Sequence record: PZ229304.1
Direction: 5' to 3' (one strand)
DNA from: a phage
DNA: 64,000 bases
The notes beneath the pieces were generated by a model that saw nothing but the letters and a program-made list of their open reading frames with translations, was not told where the DNA came from and did no database searches. Of this stretch, positions 3,413 through 28,785 are shown piece by piece (within the stretch, counting starts at the first letter, position 1; each line of letters opens with the position of its first letter). The translations under genes and the position numbers were made by a program.

Positions 3413-6187
3413 TTAGTTTACCAGTTTATTTATATCTGGTAAAAGATTTATTTCACCTAAAAAATCACCTTCACCTTCCTCTAACCAACTCTCATATGCT
3501 TGTGCATGATTATAGTTACCATCAAAAGAATCTGCAACAAATTTTTCTACAGTTTTTCGAGATGTGTCAGCGCCAAATACACCAAGTTTAATACCATTGA
3601 TCGGTAAAGTGGTACTTGTTGGTACTTTCTCTGTTGCAACACGGTTGATATCTATAATCTCCTGTACGGTTGTGTTCCATTGTAAGCATTTAACACAACG
3701 GGTATGCGCTACATACAGTAGGTTTCGCTCTGCCTCTTCCAGTCCTACCCATTCACCAGTCTTTTTATCATAGTTGGAAGGAAAATCATTAGCAACAATA
3801 ACCTGATCCCACTCCAAACCTTTAGACTTGTGTGCTGTAGTCAGTGTGACTTTTGCTGTAGGAGAATTTCTATGCGTTCTAAGTGTATGTGCTATAGTGT
3901 TTGCCTTACCAGAAACTACGATGTTTAACAAGCGTTTAGCATCTGGATCAGCCTCTGCACACTCAACAAATTCATTCCAGTCTGCGTAAGGTAATACAGT
4001 TTCATGTTTTACTTTCTCAATATCTCCTCTCCGAAGAGCATTAACACTATCTACCATAGAGATAAAATCCCTGGTATCTACGTTAATAATAATTTCTTCC
4101 CCATCTGCAATACGATCCATTGCCTCCATAAGCAAGGTTAAATTCTTGCGAAAGATGATAGTGTAAGGTTTTGTATAGTCTACAACATCTGATTTGTAGC
4201 TACCTACTACAGTATCAAAGCCTTTACCAACCAAAGGGTGACGCAAAGGTTCTTTATCGCTTAAAATCATATTGGCAATGTTTGCCACTTTGGGGCCAAA
4301 ACGGAAGCAAGCAGTTAATGGAAGCTCTGCTCCATACTTAGCTGTTTCAATCATCATATTAGAGCTACCTCTAAATTGATAAATGCAGTTGTGGCTAAGA
4401 ATTTCATTACCAAAGAAGTTAGCAGTATCCTCTACTTCAATATCATAATAGATACCTTCACTATCTACAATGTCCACAATTTCTTCTGCCGTTACAGTAT
4501 CACCATCTTTTACCAACACAGACATGCCTTTAAACAAACCCGCCGCCGGAATTAAAGTATATTTGGCGGTGTTCACAGAGGACATGCATTCTTTTAAAGA
4601 TGCAAACGGCACTATTTCAAGGATCTTTTGTGCAAAACTCAATGCTTCACGATAAGAATTGAAATATTTACGTACACGGTAACGACCTTCCAACTTAGCA
4701 ACACTTACGCTTACACCTGCTTCAATGAGTGAAGCATAGATTGACATTTCACTTTCTGTCCACTCAAAACTAACTTGTGTTCCTTTACAACCTTGTGCTC
4801 GCAAAGTCACTGTTAACATTTTTCTTTCATCTACTGCACAATTGATGCTGTGCCAATGTGGATAAGCAAAATGATAATCTTTATCCTCTAAAAGTTTAAA
4901 ACCGTTTTGTCCGAATTGTTCAAAAATGTTATTGATCCTTTCTTGATTAATGCCGCGTGAACTTGCTTCAAATACACAAGTAGGAATGCCATATTGTAAA
5001 CTGTATGCCATTTCTTTTTCCATAGCAGCTTCACGGTTTTCAACAATATCCAACACCCATAATTTCTGTGCTTTTTCAGAACGTGTACGTTGCCCCAGTT
5101 TAGAAAAACCTTCTTTATCATCGAATTTGTTAGTGATCCCTACTCGGAAACCTAAATCTTTCCTCCACATTAGGTATACCACCATCTGATCATCTTTCAG
5201 AACATAGGATGAAGCCCAAATACGATGGTTATGTGTCATATCTAAAGTTTTACCTGTGGCAGTAATAATATTCCTACCTTTTGTACGTGTAGATAAAGTC
5301 TTATTTGTTACTTTTCTAAATGTAATTTTACCATTAGAATAAGACTCTACCTTATCACCGATTTGTAGGTCTTTCATTGTAACCTGACCATTCTCGGTAT
5401 TAAGTACCGTGTTTTCCGACACACATTGGAATTCATCGCCCACTACCACAATTTGTTTTGCAGATTTAGCATTTCGCAGAATAGACAAGAATGCAGGGTT
5501 AACATCCTGGAATTCATCACCAAAAATAATGTCATAACCAAGGTCAGCACCTGATAATTCAAACAATTTTACATAGGTGTCATGCGTCATCAAAGTATCT
5601 GTGTTAGGATCGATGCGCTCTCGCCACAATTGTTTTGCATACTTAACTACTTCTGTAATTAGTTTGTGTTCGTTAATACCTTTTCTTTTAATATCTGCAA
5701 GATGTACACTAGGAAAATGTTTACGGCTGATAAAAGGATCATCCGAAAATTCAAACTTACCTACGGTTTGCTTGATCATTAAACCAATCATAGCACGAGT
5801 TAACAGTGTTTTCCCTCGTTTATCAATAAGATTATTAATCTTAAATTTCTTTGCTATCTCGCTACCTGTACCTGCAACGTTAACATACTGTCCTTCTGGT
5901 CGTGACAGTTTTGCACGTAAACGATGATCCAGGAATTGATAGCAAATAGAATGCAATGTACGGCATTCTACATTTAGTGGCATCTTACGTCGTGCTTCTT
6001 CTGCCATGCTTTTATTGAAAGCTAAGTAAAGAATGCGATCTTCTGTACTGTTAGCCAGCAAATAAAGTGTTGACGTTTTGCCTGATCCAGATTTAGCTTG
6101 GATAGTTAAAAAGCGATGGTCTGGAAAAGCCTCCTTAATAGCTGTTTGCTCTTCTGTTGGAGTGAAGCTCAACTCTTTCTTAGCCAT
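3413..6187 (-). CDS. UvrD/PcrA-like SF1 DNA helicase interrupted by an in-frame intein
   Basis: Walker A (AKSGSGKTST), motif II (GDEFQDVNP), motif III split as GDEFQ / C-IYQFRGS, motif V (TAHKSKGLEWDQVIV), motif VI (LLYVAHTRC). Start trimmed from TTG at 6226 to ATG at 6187 with RBS. Confidence 0.8.
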   Translation of the reverse strand: MAKKELSFTPTEEQTAIKEAFPDHRFLTIQAKSGSGKTSTLYLLANSTEDRILYLAFNKSMAEEARRKMPLNVECRTLHSICYQFLDHRLRAKLSRPEGQYVNVAGTGSEIAKKFKINNLIDKRGKTLLTRAMIGLMIKQTVGKFEFSDDPFISRKHFPSVHLADIKRKGINEHKLITEVVKYAKQLWRERIDPNTDTLMTHDTYVKLFELSGADLGYDIIFGDEFQDVNPAFLSILRNAKSAKQIVVVGDEFQCVSENTVLNTENGQVTMKDLQIGDKVESYSNGKITFRKVTNKTLSTRTKGRNIITATGKTLDMTHNHRIWASSYVLKDDQMVVYLMWRKDLGFRVGITNKFDDKEGFSKLGQRTRSEKAQKLWVLDIVENREAAMEKEMAYSLQYGIPTCVFEASSRGINQERINNIFEQFGQNGFKLLEDKDYHFAYPHWHSINCAVDERKMLTVTLRAQGCKGTQVSFEWTESEMSIYASLIEAGVSVSVAKLEGRYRVRKYFNSYREALSFAQKILEIVPFASLKECMSSVNTAKYTLIPAAGLFKGMSVLVKDGDTVTAEEIVDIVDSEGIYYDIEVEDTANFFGNEILSHNCIYQFRGSSNMMIETAKYGAELPLTACFRFGPKVANIANMILSDKEPLRHPLVGKGFDTVVGSYKSDVVDYTKPYTIIFRKNLTLLMEAMDRIADGEEIIINVDTRDFISMVDSVNALRRGDIEKVKHETVLPYADWNEFVECAEADPDAKRLLNIVVSGKANTIAHTLRTHRNSPTAKVTLTTAHKSKGLEWDQVIVANDFPSNYDKKTGEWVGLEEAERNLLYVAHTRCVKCLQWNTTVQEIIDINRVATEKVPTSTTLPINGIKLGVFGADTSRKTVEKFVADSFDGNYNHAQAYESWLEEGEGDFLGEINLLPDINKLVN
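4388..5425 (-). mobile_element. intein (346 aa) inside helicase motif III; central domain may be a homing endonuclease of unidentified type
   Basis: N-terminal Cys (codon aca at 5423-5425 on plus, TGT on minus), block B-like TxxH (MTHNH), C-terminal YDIEVEDTANFFGNEILSHN followed by +1 Cys (4385-4387); removing it restores the canonical motif III GDEFQ-CIYQFRG. Confidence 0.7.
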
Positions 6188-11936: not shown

Positions 11937-12227
11937 TCACATTAAGACACGTTTTGTATTGATGGGGGCATTGTCGAACATGTTTATCACTTTGTCAAGT
12001 TTGTGTATTAACTCGTTCGTAATGTTCCACTCTTTGTATGATCTCCATTGCTTCTTATTCTCACCTACCTGGTGTAAAACTTTTATTGGTGCATTCAAAC
12101 GTACATTGCGTTCTTTGTCCTCTTCAAAAGAGGCTAACCATTTTTCGTTATGTCCATGAACAGCAATAATAATGCCAAAACCATCAAAAGTTTCTGTAAT
12201 ATTCTTAGTTGCTAGTGTGATGTTCAT
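11937..12227 (-). CDS. hypothetical protein
   Basis: 96-aa track ORF; first gene of the minus block, divergent from the plus island. Confidence 0.45.
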   Translation of the reverse strand: MNITLATKNITETFDGFGIIIAVHGHNEKWLASFEEDKERNVRLNAPIKVLHQVGENKKQWRSYKEWNITNELIHKLDKVINMFDNAPINTKRVLM

Positions 12228-12346
12228 ATCTAACCTCTTTTGTTACGATGCACACAGAGTACCAGAAATTAATTTCAGATCAAGTATTGACATACTGTTT
12301 TATTGTGCTAATCTTAATGCATACACAAATGAGAGGAGATAAACGA

Positions 12347-13806: not shown

Positions 13807-14934
13807 ATGAAATACACGATTTATGGTGATATTGTAAGTGTAAATAAAGATATGGGCGTGGAATCTAACTATCTTCCACCTGGATTCTATACTGTTAGTC
13901 GTGATCCCCTTGGCAATTACTTTTTAAGCCGTGGTAATCTAACAGGTGTACCGGATGTTCTGTATGGTGAAACAGAAAAACGAGCAAATCACGTTATTCG
14001 TACATTCCATCGCCGGAGTGCACAAGGTAAAAATACAGGCTTGCTTCTGACAGGAACTAAGGGCAGTGGTAAAACTATGTTAGCCAAACTCATTAGTCGT
14101 GACCTTGTAGAAGAAGGTATTCCAACTATTATGGTTACTCAAGCCTACAGTGATGCTAATTTCATTGAACTTATTAGTAAGATCACCGACAAAGCAGTGA
14201 TTATTTTTGACGAATTTGATAAAGTATATGAGAAGAAACAAGATCAAGAAGCACTTCTCACTTTGTTAGATGGTACTGGCAGTGGTAATAAACTGTTTAT
14301 TCTAACTAAAAACAGTGGCTTTATCTCTGAATTCTTTCTAAATCGTCCTAGTCGTGTGTTTTATAATTTTAATTATGATAAAATCTCACTAGAAACTATG
14401 ATTGACTATTTAGATAAAAACCTGGATAACAAAGCACACTTGGATAATTTCCAAAGGCTTTGGGATGTAAGTTTAGAGTTGTCCTTTGATGTGATCCAAG
14501 GTATAGTAGAAGAACTTAATTTCTACCCTGATTTATCCTTTAAAGAATGCATCTCTATGATGGGCGTTTCTTTGGGTGGTGGTAATAAGTGGGATATCAG
14601 CAGCGTTGTTATTAATGGGAAACTTCAGAAAGTTAGCTGGGTATCTAGTTGGCATAACTTCACACCTGCAATCTTTTTAGGTGGCTCGTGCACACTAGAC
14701 GTGTACTTGTCATCTCCAAGTGATGCAGACTCTAAAGAAGCCCTTGCTAATAGCTCTTACGTGGTTTTTGATGATGAAGGAGATGCTCGAATTCCATTGA
14801 ATGCGACAAAAATGAAAGCAGATCTTATTACAGGCGGTAAAATCGTTGTGTTTAGTGATGATCCAGAAGATTCTTTCCGTATTGTTCTGGAACCAACTAT
14901 CACCAATGGTGCAACTTTGGCAAGTGTGTTTTAA
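13807..14934 (+). CDS. AAA+-type ATPase with uncharacterised C-terminal domain
   Basis: Walker A GTKGSGKTMLAKL and Walker B VIIFDEFDK. Confidence 0.6.
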   Translation: MKYTIYGDIVSVNKDMGVESNYLPPGFYTVSRDPLGNYFLSRGNLTGVPDVLYGETEKRANHVIRTFHRRSAQGKNTGLLLTGTKGSGKTMLAKLISRDLVEEGIPTIMVTQAYSDANFIELISKITDKAVIIFDEFDKVYEKKQDQEALLTLLDGTGSGNKLFILTKNSGFISEFFLNRPSRVFYNFNYDKISLETMIDYLDKNLDNKAHLDNFQRLWDVSLELSFDVIQGIVEELNFYPDLSFKECISMMGVSLGGGNKWDISSVVINGKLQKVSWVSSWHNFTPAIFLGGSCTLDVYLSSPSDADSKEALANSSYVVFDDEGDARIPLNATKMKADLITGGKIVVFSDDPEDSFRIVLEPTITNGATLASVF

Positions 14935-14949
14935 GTAAGCCAGCAAATA

Positions 14950-14974
14950 AAAACCCGCTTCGGCGGGTTTTCTT
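14950..14974 (+). terminator. intrinsic terminator
   Basis: AACCCGCTTCGGCGGGTT hairpin followed by TTCTTG. Confidence 0.6.
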
Positions 14975-15008
14975 GCATTAATGCCAGATTTAATAAGAGG
15001 AGTAGTAG

Positions 15009-16202
15009 ATGGCAGCACCAAAATCATGGGAACAATATAAAGAAGAGTGTCAACCTATTGCGAATAATAAAGGGATTGAGATCCTAGGATATGTTGAACC
15101 GTTTATAGGTTGTGATACGAAAATGATTCTACGCTGTAGGCAGGAACATGAATGGAAGACTTGTAGTATTAGTAATTTCAAGCACGGTAACAGTTGTCCT
15201 ATCTGTTCTGGTAAGAAGCCGTTAACATGGGAAACAGAATTGCCGATCTTGGAAGAGATAGCACAGAAGAAGGGGTATCAGGTGTTAGGGTACGTTGGAG
15301 AATGGAAAGGGAATAAAACAAAACTTGATTTGTTGTGCCATTGTGGGAATAGATGGCAAAGTACAGCAATTCATCAATTTAAAGGCGGTCGAGGTTGTCC
15401 ACAATGTAGGGGGGAGAATACAAGGAAGGCACTAACAATGTCCGACGATCAACATATTGCAGATTTCTTTTCTACAGGGAAATTTAAGGAAGGCACTATC
15501 TTCACTAACACAGGAACACGGAGTAAAGGATGCAGGCATAGTATCTGGATGGTTGAATGTCCTGTTTGCTCTCATGATGAATATGTTCAAGCAGGTGTTT
15601 GTGATGGTAAATTTTACTCTGAAGGAAATAACCTTAAACGAGGGTGCATTCCGTGTCGTTGTGGAAACTATCGGTATACAGAAGACCAGATCACCTATAG
15701 GGTAAAAAAGGAAGTAGAAGGGCAAGGGTATGTCTGGGTAGGTTGGATCGGTAAACCGTCTAGAAGTCACGGTAAGTTTAAATATCTTTGTCTTGTGCAT
15801 GGGGAACAGACAGGGAGGGCTAATAACTTATTAAGCCTCGGTCAAGGTTGTCCACAGTGTGCTGGTCATAATCAACAGCAATTATATATTAATATTGTTA
15901 AAGATAATGATATTATAGTGGCTCTTAAGTTTGGTATAGCTAAAGATAGTGATAGGCGATTAAATAGTCAAAATAGTTGTAATATGTTTTTTATGGAGCG
16001 TATTTGTTTATATGATTTTAGCACAGTGAAACAATGTAAGGCTGCTGAAAGAGCTATAAAGAAAAAATTAAAAACTGGTATTTTAACGGAAAGAGAGTTG
16101 AAAGACGGTTATACAGAAACAGTAAGTGTTTCTGATTTGGAAAATCTTCAAGAAATTATTACACAACATGGTGGCAAATTAGTATATAATAAGGAGATGT
16201 AA
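15009..16202 (+). CDS. tandem zinc-ribbon repeat protein with C-terminal GIY-YIG-like (T5orf172-type) putative nuclease domain
   Basis: About four repeats of GY..G.....K......C..GH.W.....F..G..CP.C.G (CPICSGKK, CPQCRGEN, CPVCSHDE, CPQCAGHN); C-terminus YINIVKDNDIIVALKFGIAKD..RRL..N...ERI.LYDF resembles the T5orf172/GIY-YIG pattern by recollection. Confidence 0.5.
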   Translation: MAAPKSWEQYKEECQPIANNKGIEILGYVEPFIGCDTKMILRCRQEHEWKTCSISNFKHGNSCPICSGKKPLTWETELPILEEIAQKKGYQVLGYVGEWKGNKTKLDLLCHCGNRWQSTAIHQFKGGRGCPQCRGENTRKALTMSDDQHIADFFSTGKFKEGTIFTNTGTRSKGCRHSIWMVECPVCSHDEYVQAGVCDGKFYSEGNNLKRGCIPCRCGNYRYTEDQITYRVKKEVEGQGYVWVGWIGKPSRSHGKFKYLCLVHGEQTGRANNLLSLGQGCPQCAGHNQQQLYINIVKDNDIIVALKFGIAKDSDRRLNSQNSCNMFFMERICLYDFSTVKQCKAAERAIKKKLKTGILTERELKDGYTETVSVSDLENLQEIITQHGGKLVYNKEM

Positions 16203-16754
16203 ATGCGGATTACTGATAAATATGTGTTCTTCTTCTCGGCAAAAGATGAATTTAGCAACTGGTATCTATCATCTTTTATTGAACCTTTAGCTCCCAAGTA
16301 TAATAATTCTATTACAAGTTCTGTTGAATTTACTTGTGTGGAACAATATATGATGTGGAGAAAAGCATGTTTGTTTTATGATTACAACATTGCATCTTCT
16401 ATTTTAACCGGAGATCTAAGATATACAGGAGAAAAAGAACAGGCATATTATAAGCGACTAGGTAGATTAGTTAAAGATTACGATGAAGCTACTTGGACTT
16501 CTTTACGGGAGAAGATTGTCAAGCGTGGTTTGTATCTTAAATACACACAAAATGAAGATCTCAAAAATAAACTTATCGCTTACGCAGATAAGGAGTTCGT
16601 AGAGGCAAGCCCTTATGATTCTATTTATGGTATCAAAATGGGAATGTGGGATCGTGATGTGGAAAATAAGGACTGTTGGAAAGGACAAAATCTTTTAGGA
16701 AAATGGCATACAGACCTTGCTGTTTATCTAAAAGCACAATCTGATATTTCCTGA
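16203..16754 (+). CDS. NADAR (YbiA-like, DUF1768) domain protein
   Basis: FFFSAKDEFSNWYLSSF, FTCVEQYMMWRKACLF and SPYDSIYGIKMGMWDRD..KDCWKGQNLLGKWHTDLAV parallel the YbiA motifs FYS..D.YG.FSNF, TSEHYFQA.KF and D.YWG.G..G.G.N.LG. Confidence 0.7.
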   Translation: MRITDKYVFFFSAKDEFSNWYLSSFIEPLAPKYNNSITSSVEFTCVEQYMMWRKACLFYDYNIASSILTGDLRYTGEKEQAYYKRLGRLVKDYDEATWTSLREKIVKRGLYLKYTQNEDLKNKLIAYADKEFVEASPYDSIYGIKMGMWDRDVENKDCWKGQNLLGKWHTDLAVYLKAQSDIS

Positions 16755-16967
16755 TATTTTGAAAATTTTTATTTTTATAAAAAGGGGTGTGGGTTTCATG
16801 TACGGAAATCCACCCTCTGAATAATATATCCAGAGTAAATATTATTCTGTACTCTGTTAATAAAGTATTTAATTTGTTTGTTGGACTATGGTATCTGATC
16901 TTTAAAAGGCATACTATCTCTTAACTACTACTTATAACAGAACAGTAAAATCATTTTTATAAAAAGG

Positions 16968-17170
16968 ACAAAATTATTTAAAGTTTTTACAGATTTTTGG
17001 GTACAAATTTTGAAAATGAAAAGTTCAAGTTTGGTCAAAATTATTTAAAGTTTTTGTATGTATTTCTATCCAGATTTTGAAAATGAAAACTTCAATTTTT
17101 TAAAAATTCCCCAGTTTATTTAAAGTTTTTTTGCCTTTTTCCGTAGAAAAATCAAAAATGAAAAGTTCAA
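16968..17170. repeat. three tandem direct repeats of about 67-72 bp (TATTTAAAGTTTTT ... TTTTGAAAATGAAAAGTTCAA), iteron-like
   Basis: Read directly in non-coding DNA. Confidence 0.6.
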
Positions 17171-17196
17171 TTTCGTGTTTTTATAGGTGTGCGTAT

Positions 17197-17306
17197 GATA
17201 ATCATTCTCATTTGTAAATGAGAATCATTATCATTTAAGTATGTAAGTGATAATCATTCTCATTAAGAGAATGAGAATCATTAGCAAATGAGAATTTTTC
17301 TCATTT
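17197..17306. promoter_or_regulatory. cluster of Fur-box-like palindromes (GATAATCATTCTCATT x2, AATGAGAATCATTATC)
   Basis: AAATGAGAATCATTATC matches the Fur consensus GATAATGATAATCATTATC at about 16/19 by hand. Confidence 0.45.
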
Positions 17307-17567
17307 AGAGAATAACGCGCAGGGGCGGTGTTTGTCTCGCGCTCCCGTGTCCCCTCGCCATACAATAAGAATAGCATAACCAACAACAAAAGCAAGCGAT
17401 TATTTTTATCTTTACATTTCTTTACAAATTTATTTTAGACGAGCTACCGGCGATCAACCTTCCAACCAGTGCCCCCTGGTATGTTAGCCCCGCCTTTACG
17501 CCGTGGGGGTGGCGCTTCCTCTTCTGTATGTAAAACAGTATAAGCCCGATCCCTGGGCTTGTCAAGA

Positions 17568-17834
17568 TTATTTTTTGTTTTCTTGCCAGGATAGGACACC
17601 TAACCAAAAATACATGTCGCCCCGCGCCCCTGGTGGGATCTTGCTTTCCCCGCCGCCACTGCAAGCCCATAGATAACCATTAGCGAACGGATCAAAGTTT
17701 TCTATTTCTTCCACCTTATGATCGCCCAGGTTGAGAACGGTTTCGACCTTTAAGCCCGTTGCGCTTGCTACCTGGTGCACCGTGCCGCCTTGCCAGCCCA
17801 ATGAGTGCATAAGGTGTAAAGTAGTATTTGTCAT
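17568..17834 (-). CDS. hypothetical protein (uncertain)
   Basis: 88-aa ORF with ATG and weak RBS in a GC-rich stretch where overlapping spurious frames are common. Confidence 0.25.
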   Translation of the reverse strand: MTNTTLHLMHSLGWQGGTVHQVASATGLKVETVLNLGDHKVEEIENFDPFANGYLWACSGGGESKIPPGARGDMYFWLGVLSWQENKK

Positions 17835-17933
17835 GGTATCGCCCTTTCTTTGATGTGCGCCCTGGTTGGCGCGGTAGAAAGATAATAGCCGTTTCCTTTA
17901 TAGATAGCAAGCAAAAAAAGAAATGAAAAAAGA

Positions 17934-18266
17934 TTAAAAAAATGGTTGACGTTCCTCACCTGGTAGCGTAATATTCATCTTGTCGAGGGGGGCAAGGCAC
18001 AACGACAATAAACAATAGGCGGGTGCAATGCATGACGGGCAAAGGTGAGGATCTCCACAATCCACCGTCACAATAACATTACTTATAAAAGGTTGATAAC
18101 GATGATCAAGAAAGAAAATAGCTTGACGGTTGGAACGATTAACGCTATCATTCTCGCCGTTCCATTTTGGATTGTAGTGGCGGTTGTTATTTTCTAAAAA
18201 ATATTCTTGACAACGTTTTTTAATCTGATAAGATGTATCACATAGGGCGGCAATAGTGCCGCTCAT
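17934..18266 (-). CDS. hypothetical Cys-rich protein (uncertain)
   Basis: 110-aa ORF with ATG start, but its 5' end overlaps the promoter/hairpin of the first plus-strand cassette. Confidence 0.2.
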   Translation of the reverse strand: MSGTIAALCDTSYQIKKRCQEYFLENNNRHYNPKWNGENDSVNRSNRQAIFFLDHRYQPFISNVIVTVDCGDPHLCPSCIAPAYCLLSLCLAPLDKMNITLPGEERQPFF

Positions 18267-28766: not shown

Positions 28767-28785
28767 GCAAATGATAATCATTATC
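28767..28785. promoter_or_regulatory. near-consensus Fur-box-like site GCAAATGATAATCATTATC
   Basis: 17/19 identity to GATAATGATAATCATTATC by hand. Confidence 0.5.

Follow-up and report, generated by a model that had tools for sequence, protein, structure and literature searches.

What does a gene that joins four cysteine-rich modules to a nuclease-type domain do between an AAA-type ATPase gene and a NADAR/YbiA-like gene in a coliphage? The gene in question is an open reading frame (ORF) of 397 amino acids (aa) with an ATG start, located at 15009..16202 on the plus strand of a 64,000-nucleotide (nt) stretch of phage DNA (record PZ229304.1; the whole stretch is referred to here as the window), and it is preceded by a ribosome-binding site (RBS) read from the sequence (AAGAGGAG, 14995..15002, plus strand), 6 nt 5′ of the ATG. 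We consider it likely that this gene is a free-standing cassette of the homing-endonuclease type, inserted between the ATPase and NADAR genes. The source phage is a Justusliebigvirus-type coliphage (Stephanstirmvirinae); over a 5-kb stretch around the endonuclease gene, it shares 98.5% identity with Escherichia phage vB_vPM_PD06, whose corresponding product, labelled “endonuclease” in RefSeq, is 100% identical to the endonuclease protein. PD06, the only 100%-identical genome, contains a single copy of the gene (one place by tblastn), and no paralog of its CapR units or of its T5orf172 domain was found elsewhere in the 64-kb window. The protein matches PHROG 681 (“endonuclease”; E = 4e-84) and no NCBIfam model, and its family comprises 5,227 representatives (50% identity, E ≤ 1e-3). 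Many deposited genomes of these coliphages label the gene “hypothetical protein”; the present analysis provides a firm annotation in its place, the practical value of which is modest.

The N-terminal zinc-finger array

The N-terminal 290 residues are covered in four stretches by the Pfam CapR homology domain (PF21817; E = 1.1e-38). When the four units were scanned one by one against the PF21817 cut-off of 24.2 bits, each individually exceeded it: unit R1 (15009..15224, plus strand, aa 1–72), an A-type CapR-homology zinc-finger module, scored 32.2 bits; R2 (15225..15425, plus strand, aa 73–139; A-type) scored 57.0 bits; R3 (15426..15674, plus strand, aa 140–222; B-type) scored 48.2 bits; and R4 (15675..15878, plus strand, aa 223–290; A-type) scored 30.0 bits. 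A first-pass annotation of the locus had described four CxxC-containing repeats; the four units are real, but the protein contains five CxxC motifs (aa 63, 130, 184, 213, and 281), not four. Alignment of the repeats, which the same annotation had proposed, gave pairwise similarity far above chance for R1 and R2 (z = 21) and for R2 and R4 (z = 10), with 0 of 500 shuffles reaching either score; R3, on the other hand, had no detectable pairwise similarity to the other units (z of 1.4–2.1) and was missed by a profile built from R1, R2, and R4. R3 was first suspected to be a non-repeat, which was ruled out by its PF21817 score. On the profile and alignment evidence, the array is composed of two unit subtypes ordered A-A-B-A, with R3 representing a distinct subtype.

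Candidate zinc ligands could be assigned in each unit: C43, H47, C63, and C66 in R1; C110, C112 (or H111), C130, and C133 in R2, where C110, C130, and C133 are nearly invariant; C184-P-V-C187 ... C198 ... C216-R-C218 in R3; and C261, H264, C281, and C284 in R4, where C261, C281, and C284 are nearly invariant. In 294 A units, drawn from 119 members of the family, the ligands form the set C-x2-H...C-x2-C, the three cysteines being 99% conserved and the fourth ligand being provided by a nearby His or Cys, while the B-type set is CPxC...C...CxC (84–100% conserved in 83 units). Pfam describes the related DUF4379 as a probable treble clef; “zinc ribbon”, the term used in the first-pass annotation, is an imprecise label for these units. 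In CapR, the cysteines of the CxxC...CxC motif are needed for DNA binding, as shown by electrophoretic mobility shift assays and Cys-to-Ser mutants (PMC8096241); by homology, the zinc modules of the array described here would bind DNA.

The C-terminal nuclease domain

The remainder of the gene (15879..16202, plus strand, including the stop codon) encodes a T5orf172/GIY-YIG-type nuclease domain (aa 291–397). With the T5orf172 profile (PF10544; cut-off of 20), the whole protein scored 22.1 bits and aa 278–397 alone scored 25.0 bits; the margin is small, and only profile positions 10–69 of 101 were matched. The motif residues are Y293 in strand 1, K307-F-G309 in strand 2, R317 in helix 1, E347, and D366-G-Y-T-E370; in alignments of 86 and 96 homologs, Y293, K307, G309, R317, E347, G367, and E370 were invariant. 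Read in order, this residue set is the GIY-YIG pattern with a Lys in place of the second Tyr. The AlphaFold2 model of the whole protein had a predicted local distance difference test (pLDDT) value of 93.4 and a predicted template modelling score (pTM) of 0.59, the latter as expected for a protein organized as beads on a string; the nuclease domain modelled alone reached a pLDDT of 94.9 and a pTM of 0.88, with topology b-b-a-b-a...a-b. The C-terminal domain is thus predicted to take the GIY-YIG alpha/beta fold, with a three-stranded sheet and flanking helices. A Foldseek search with the whole-protein model was uninformative, and a profile search of PDB sequences detected no relative with a solved structure. 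The T5orf172/GIY-YIG-like C-terminus suggested in the first-pass annotation has, in this way, held up at the level of profile, predicted fold, and catalytic-type residues, and the sequence-specific nuclease that it proposed as one function of the protein fits the predicted fold and the invariant residues.

Cleavage itself has been reported for a member of this domain family: purified Odn, a T5orf172 nuclease, cuts DNA, and the substitution E180A abolishes its activity (PMC8263062). Motif order suggests that E370 is the counterpart of Odn E180, and the T5orf172 domain of the protein described here would, by homology with Odn, cleave DNA.

Presence, absence, and replacement of the gene at its insertion site

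We searched the phage collection for empty sites with a chimera in which the final 400 nt from the ATPase gene were joined to the first 400 nt of the NADAR gene, for which an occupied locus gives two split matches and an empty site gives one contiguous match. None of the 64 Justusliebigvirus records was contiguous across the site, while the flanks were 97–99.8% identical to the window; the endonuclease gene is fixed in this genus. The search was repeated for the sister genus Phapecoctavirus with the flanks of phage phAPEC8, and three of the 71 Phapecoctavirus-type records were contiguous across the site, two of which (phiWec190 and EP57) were inspected. Phage phiWec190 has a clean empty site, in which the ATPase stop codon is followed by a terminator hairpin, an RBS, and the next gene. 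In EP57 (L014, 1761–3266), the cassette and the last ATPase codons are deleted, which results in an in-frame fusion of the ATPase gene and the downstream gene (a 1506-nt ORF); the EP57 record is 130.7 kb long, as compared to approximately 150 kb in relatives, and has many tiny ORFs annotated, so sequence quality may be at issue.

The left edge of the cassette is marked by a terminator-like hairpin (14950..14974, plus strand; AAAACCCGC-TTCG-GCGGGTTTT, then CTT), recognized by sequence and RNA folding, which is located directly 3′ of the ATPase stop codon and has a GC-rich 9-bp stem with a T-run after it. This hairpin (CCCGCTTCGGCGGG), the leader, and the start of the endonuclease gene are common to the window phage and phAPEC8, and megablast similarity between the window and phAPEC8 starts at window position 14951, in the hairpin; the ATPase proteins of the two phages are only 64% identical (66% at the nt level), and the flanks overall show approximately 58–66% nt identity despite the common cassette. 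Phage Schickermooser and the empty-site phage phiWec190 have a different hairpin (GCCCCGCAAGGGGC), and the Schickermooser endonuclease gene is inserted just after it. The ATPases of Schickermooser and phAPEC8 are 99.7% identical, whereas the endonucleases in the same slot are 39% identical and differ in architecture (486 aa, A-A-A-B-A-T, in Schickermooser; 394 aa, A-A-B-A-T, in phAPEC8, where T denotes the T5orf172 domain). A comparison of phiWec190 with phAPEC8 gave 72% identity for the ATPase gene and 95% for the downstream gene, which places an exchange boundary at the insertion site.

Outside the subfamily, distant homologs in other phage families have unrelated neighbouring genes. Phage Skers, which is T4-like, has a homolog next to gene 32, and an HNH endonuclease gene lies in the neighbouring 59/32 gap, the gap that segG occupies in T4 (PMC2988022). 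We considered whether the Skers homolog sits at the T4 segG position and rejected this, as the review places segG in the 32/59 gap itself; the two share the same hot spot only. Taken together, presence/absence polymorphism at a precise intergenic site is found at the subfamily level and not within Justusliebigvirus, and the allele replacement, the cross-genus cassette, and the unrelated contexts of distant homologs point to horizontal movement of the gene separately from its flanks. Sporadic presence among relatives, which the first-pass annotation had named as a signature of homing endonucleases, is therefore borne out for the subfamily (an empty site, non-homologous alleles in the slot, and a cassette shared across genera) and not for the phage’s own genus.

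Modular evolution of the alleles

Comparison with seven Justusliebigvirus relatives other than PD06 revealed nt identities of 97–100% in the flanking genes, 94–96% in the T5orf172 domain, and 56–93% in the zinc-finger units, the latter in a mosaic that changes unit by unit. Against phi92, of the same genus, protein identity is 39% in the B unit, 48% in the fourth unit, and 92% in the nuclease domain, while against phAPEC8, of the other genus, it is 77%, 70%, and 49%, respectively. R1 is the most divergent unit among the alleles, with 63–67% nt identity in the 4- and 5-unit alleles and 77% in the R1 remnant of phage EmilieFrey; the number of synonymous substitutions per synonymous site (dS) in R1 is about 0.8–2, synonymous sites being saturated (dS of about 1 or more) in the 4- and 5-unit alleles. 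In the nuclease domain, the ratio of nonsynonymous to synonymous substitutions (dN/dS) is 0.2–0.5 at a dS similar to that of the flanks, as compared to 0.00–0.07 in the flanking genes (0.01–0.03 for the ATPase and 0.00–0.07 for the NADAR gene). All eight alleles examined are intact.

Alleles with three, four, or five units encode proteins of 325, 390–397, and 465 aa, respectively, and the wider family follows the pattern (A)n-B-A-T, with n = 1–4, as well as other permutations. The 3-unit allele of EmilieFrey results from an exact in-frame deletion of 201 nt (67 codons), the junction of which falls in a stretch of approximately 30 nt where units 1 and 2 are homologous; the repeat-mediated in-frame deletion described for ICP1 gp174* (PMC10448857) is the same process. 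These patterns, as read from the aligned alleles, indicate that recombination shuffles the zinc-finger units and leads to their gain and loss.

Proposed role and alternative explanations

As a homing-endonuclease-type cassette, the gene could act as follows. Each zinc module would bind a short stretch of DNA, with the whole array specifying a long target, and the nuclease domain would cut near this target by metal-dependent chemistry involving Arg317 and Glu370. In a mixed infection, a related phage without the cassette, or with a different allele, would be cut, and repair of the break, if the cassette is mobile at present, would copy the cassette, along with markers close to it, into the genome of the rival (intronless homing or marker exclusion). 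Recombination among the repeated units would alter their number and order and, hence, specificity. Free-standing endonucleases of T4 spread in this way, often cutting hundreds of bp from their own gene (PMC2988022).

Several points weigh against this interpretation. Fixation of the gene in Justusliebigvirus means that no homing target is evident in the phage’s own genus; the contiguous match in EP57 represents a secondary deletion, not a naive site; R317 and E370 are putative counterparts of I-TevI R27 and E75, as judged from motif order and conservation; and the intact alleles and the dN/dS of 0.2–0.5 in the nuclease domain fit a maintained function equally well. With the gene both fixed and intact in Justusliebigvirus, what maintains it there at present may be competition among alleles or a domesticated function.

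A domesticated nuclease is the strongest of the other explanations, although we still regard it as unlikely. The protein would descend from a homing endonuclease and be kept to cut a competitor, i.e., a co-infecting phage, a satellite (as for ICP1 Odn), or host DNA, with the array diversifying to track its target. The location of the gene at one locus in all Justusliebigvirus records, the eight intact alleles, and the invariant catalytic-type residues are in line with such a role, as is the combination of fast-evolving, mosaic DNA-binding units with a nuclease domain that has been kept; Odn provides a precedent (PMC8263062), and Odn-like RepA_N-T5orf172 genes have been reported in inny and muut as well as in Mt1B1_P17, phages that belong to the same group (PMC10448857). 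However, Pfam detected neither RepA_N nor any other satellite-derived domain in the protein, and a search of 5,426 complete E. coli genomes found no nucleotide-level relative of the gene or of its repeats, which together argue against an anti-satellite role of the Odn type; moreover, the protein matches no PADLOC model, and the empty site and allele replacement in the sister genus indicate that the gene is dispensable and exchangeable there. Domestication also overlaps with homing and does not exclude it.

A bolder conjecture, to which we assign little probability, is that the cassette fixed in Justusliebigvirus stays intact because it acts as a phage-versus-phage exclusion locus. The array of each allele would recognize the hypervariable repeat-coding DNA of rival alleles, or nearby sequence, so that the nuclease and its own gene would be weapon and target, and escape and re-targeting, not simple drift, would account for the continual shuffling of modules.

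It is very unlikely that the protein is mainly a sequence-specific DNA-binding regulator, comparable to PLE CapR or to I-TevI repressing its own promoter, with cleavage secondary or lost. Four CapR-homology modules are what such a protein might be expected to show, given that CapR, a repressor of transcription, itself derives from a domain of this sort (PMC8096241) and that I-TevI moonlights as a repressor (PMC2988022), but CapR has no nuclease domain, whereas here the domain has been kept, with invariant motif residues and under purifying selection, and no candidate operator was identified.

The other proposal of the first-pass annotation was a nucleic-acid sensor; taken here as a sensor or effector that would form a two-gene system together with the neighbouring AAA+ ATPase, it is extremely improbable and largely refuted: the endonuclease gene does follow the ATPase gene in all Justusliebigvirus and most Phapecoctavirus records, and a homolog in one Vibrio phage is likewise preceded by a gene with the annotation AAA ATPase, but the two genes are separated by a terminator-like hairpin, the ATPase is retained in phiWec190 although the endonuclease is missing, near-identical ATPases (Schickermooser and phAPEC8) pair with endonucleases that are only 39% identical, the Vibrio “AAA ATPase” gave no BLASTP match to the window ATPase, other homologs have unrelated neighbours, and the endonuclease matches no defence-system profile in PADLOC, leaving nothing in support of a sensor. 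Conserved linkage to the neighbouring genes was likewise considered and rejected, as neither the Vibrio “AAA ATPase” nor the gene downstream of a Pectobacterium homolog is detectably related to the ATPase or the NADAR gene of the window.

If each zinc module reads a few bp, arrays of such modules joined to a GIY-YIG nuclease domain would represent a natural template for programmable nucleases, and the many natural alleles of 3, 4, and 5 units, whose nuclease domains are near-identical, would represent a specificity panel; nuclease domains of the I-TevI GIY-YIG type can act as a monomer.

Flanking genes and other features of the window

The AAA-type ATPase gene (13807..14934, plus strand; PF00004, E = 1.5e-9; phrog_2376, E = 5e-108) lies immediately upstream of the cassette, as the first-pass annotation had noted; it is the left flank of the insertion site only and lies outside the element. 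Further upstream, at approximately 12000–12250, the coding strand and the GC skew switch, with genes on the minus strand as far as about 12227 and on the plus strand from 12248 onwards, and with a minimum of the cumulative GC skew near 12000; this marks a divergent transcription point upstream of the ATPase-containing operon.

The right flank is the NADAR/YbiA-like gene (16203..16754, plus strand; PF08719, E = 2.3e-36), whose ATG abuts the endonuclease stop codon (TAAATG). Two further models match this gene, namely TIGR02464 (riboflavin-intermediate N-glycosidase; 109.8 bits) and PDC-M42C, a candidate defence model of PADLOC (E = 1.9e-34). NADAR enzymes can strip ADP-ribose from guanine in DNA, and the phage copy could counter a DarT-type defence.

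Downstream of the NADAR gene, we identified an AT-rich block (16900–17310; 22–26% GC) with three direct repeats of approximately 70–79 nt (16953–17031, 17020–17098, and 17095–17173), after which palindromic units (TGATAATCATTCTCATT / AATGAGAATCATTATCA) are densely clustered at 17194–17307. This block looks like an iteron-type or regulatory region and is possibly an origin; searches for tRNAs and Rfam families gave no match in it. Six sequences in the window, including those at 4867, 17214, 17267, 27889, and 28767, matched the E. coli Fur box consensus GATAATGATAATCATTATC with up to three mismatches, as compared to 0.04 matches expected from shuffles; the best of these (28767–28785) is palindromic and has two mismatches. 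This excess may reflect iron-responsive control or titration of Fur by the phage.

The stretch at 17287–17996 has approximately 50% GC in a genome with 37% GC, contains few ORFs, and overlaps a small minus-strand ORF annotated as gp224 in phi92. It is approximately 92–94% identical in phages of other genera (e.g., Klebsiella phage ZCKP1 and Acinetobacter phage ABPW7), while the neighbouring genes have no megablast match; searches for tRNAs and Rfam families gave no match that explains this conserved stretch downstream of the NADAR gene. A Klebsiella phage region annotated as “HNH endonuclease” matches window positions 17409–17534 at 85%. In phage cardinal (L006, 5990–7010), approximately 950 nt are present downstream of the NADAR gene in addition to what is found in the window; the extra stretch includes a 594-nt minus-strand ORF (L006, 6268–6861), which may represent another mobile gene in this ORF-poor region.

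An 81-nt stretch of Enterococcus phage heks (MT119359.1) is 98.8% identical to window positions 17915–17995. Positions 1–1250 or so of this siphovirus record carry Justusliebigvirus-like sequence, including two genes with the same VOG labels as alia_105 and alia_106, and the Danish wastewater study that yielded the record also yielded several of these coliphages; the start of the heks record is most likely a chimeric assembly or a contamination in the public record.

Comparison with known systems

Among the systems with which the protein can be compared, the eukaryotic DNA-repair nucleases Slx1 and At-HIGLE (PDB 6seh, 7cq2, and 7wme) resemble it at the fold level only, with 14–16% identity and other partner domains. 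The Seg enzymes and I-TevI of T4 (PMC2988022) share with it a modular nuclease-linker-DNA-binding design and, as free-standing intergenic cassettes, provide a precedent both for replacement of one endonuclease by a non-homologous one at a single locus and for an upstream terminator that dampens expression. The protein is, however, not a Seg enzyme: Seg enzymes have an N-terminal GIY-YIG domain and C-terminal DNA binding, whereas here the nuclease lies at the C-terminal end. The protein also differs from these enzymes in having unrelated DNA-binding modules and an invariant Lys (K307-F-G) in place of the second “YIG” Tyr. The first-pass annotation had remarked on the reversed domain order, which is correct as an observation but not unusual, as a C-terminal nuclease is the published norm for the family (PMC8096241, PMC10448857, PMC8263062).

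PLE CapR, from a Vibrio cholerae satellite (PMC8096241), contains the same zinc-finger module, and the B unit R3 has the CxxC...CxC motif type of CapR; CapR is a transcriptional repressor without a nuclease domain, while the protein described here joins four modules to an intact nuclease domain. Odn (ICP1 Gp88; Barth et al. 2021, PMC8263062), the only T5orf172 protein that we found for which cleavage has been shown in vitro, likewise combines an N-terminal DNA-binding domain with a C-terminal T5orf172 domain and has the conserved Arg and Glu. Its DNA-binding domain is RepA_N, derived from the PLE satellite, and its role is anti-satellite; the protein described here has CapR-type zinc fingers in this position and no Pfam match to RepA_N.

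The closest parallel is provided by genes of ICP1 and ICP1-like vibriophages, such as gp165 and gp174 (Netter et al. 2021, PMC8096241; Barth et al. 2023, PMC10448857), which also encode one or more N-terminal CapR/DUF723/DUF4379-type units and a C-terminal T5orf172 domain; ICP1-like homologs are approximately 32% identical to the endonuclease over aa 87–323 (E of about 1e-26). Most T5orf172 homing endonuclease genes carry at least one CapR/DUF723/DUF4379-type zinc-finger domain, often repeated, and domain shuffling and a location at genetic-exchange boundaries have also been reported for them (Barth et al. 2023, PMC10448857), as seen for the gene described here; the phages listed in that study include muut, inny, and Mt1B1_P17, which belong to the same subfamily as the window phage. 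The gene is thus an uncharacterized addition to a published family that combines CapR-type zinc fingers with T5orf172, and the findings will be unsurprising to a specialist. Unlike the ICP1 genes, it occurs in Stephanstirmvirinae infecting E. coli, has the unit order A-A-B-A, is fixed in a whole genus, and is present in one copy in PD06, as compared to three or four places in ICP1 records (tblastn). The present analysis adds the A-A-B-A order of subtypes, the fixation in one genus as opposed to the polymorphism in its sister genus, and the cassette boundary at the hairpin. For the published module shuffling of T5orf172 proteins with repeated CapR-type fingers, these coliphages represent a second well-sampled phage lineage, in which the gene is, once again, located at a boundary of genetic exchange.

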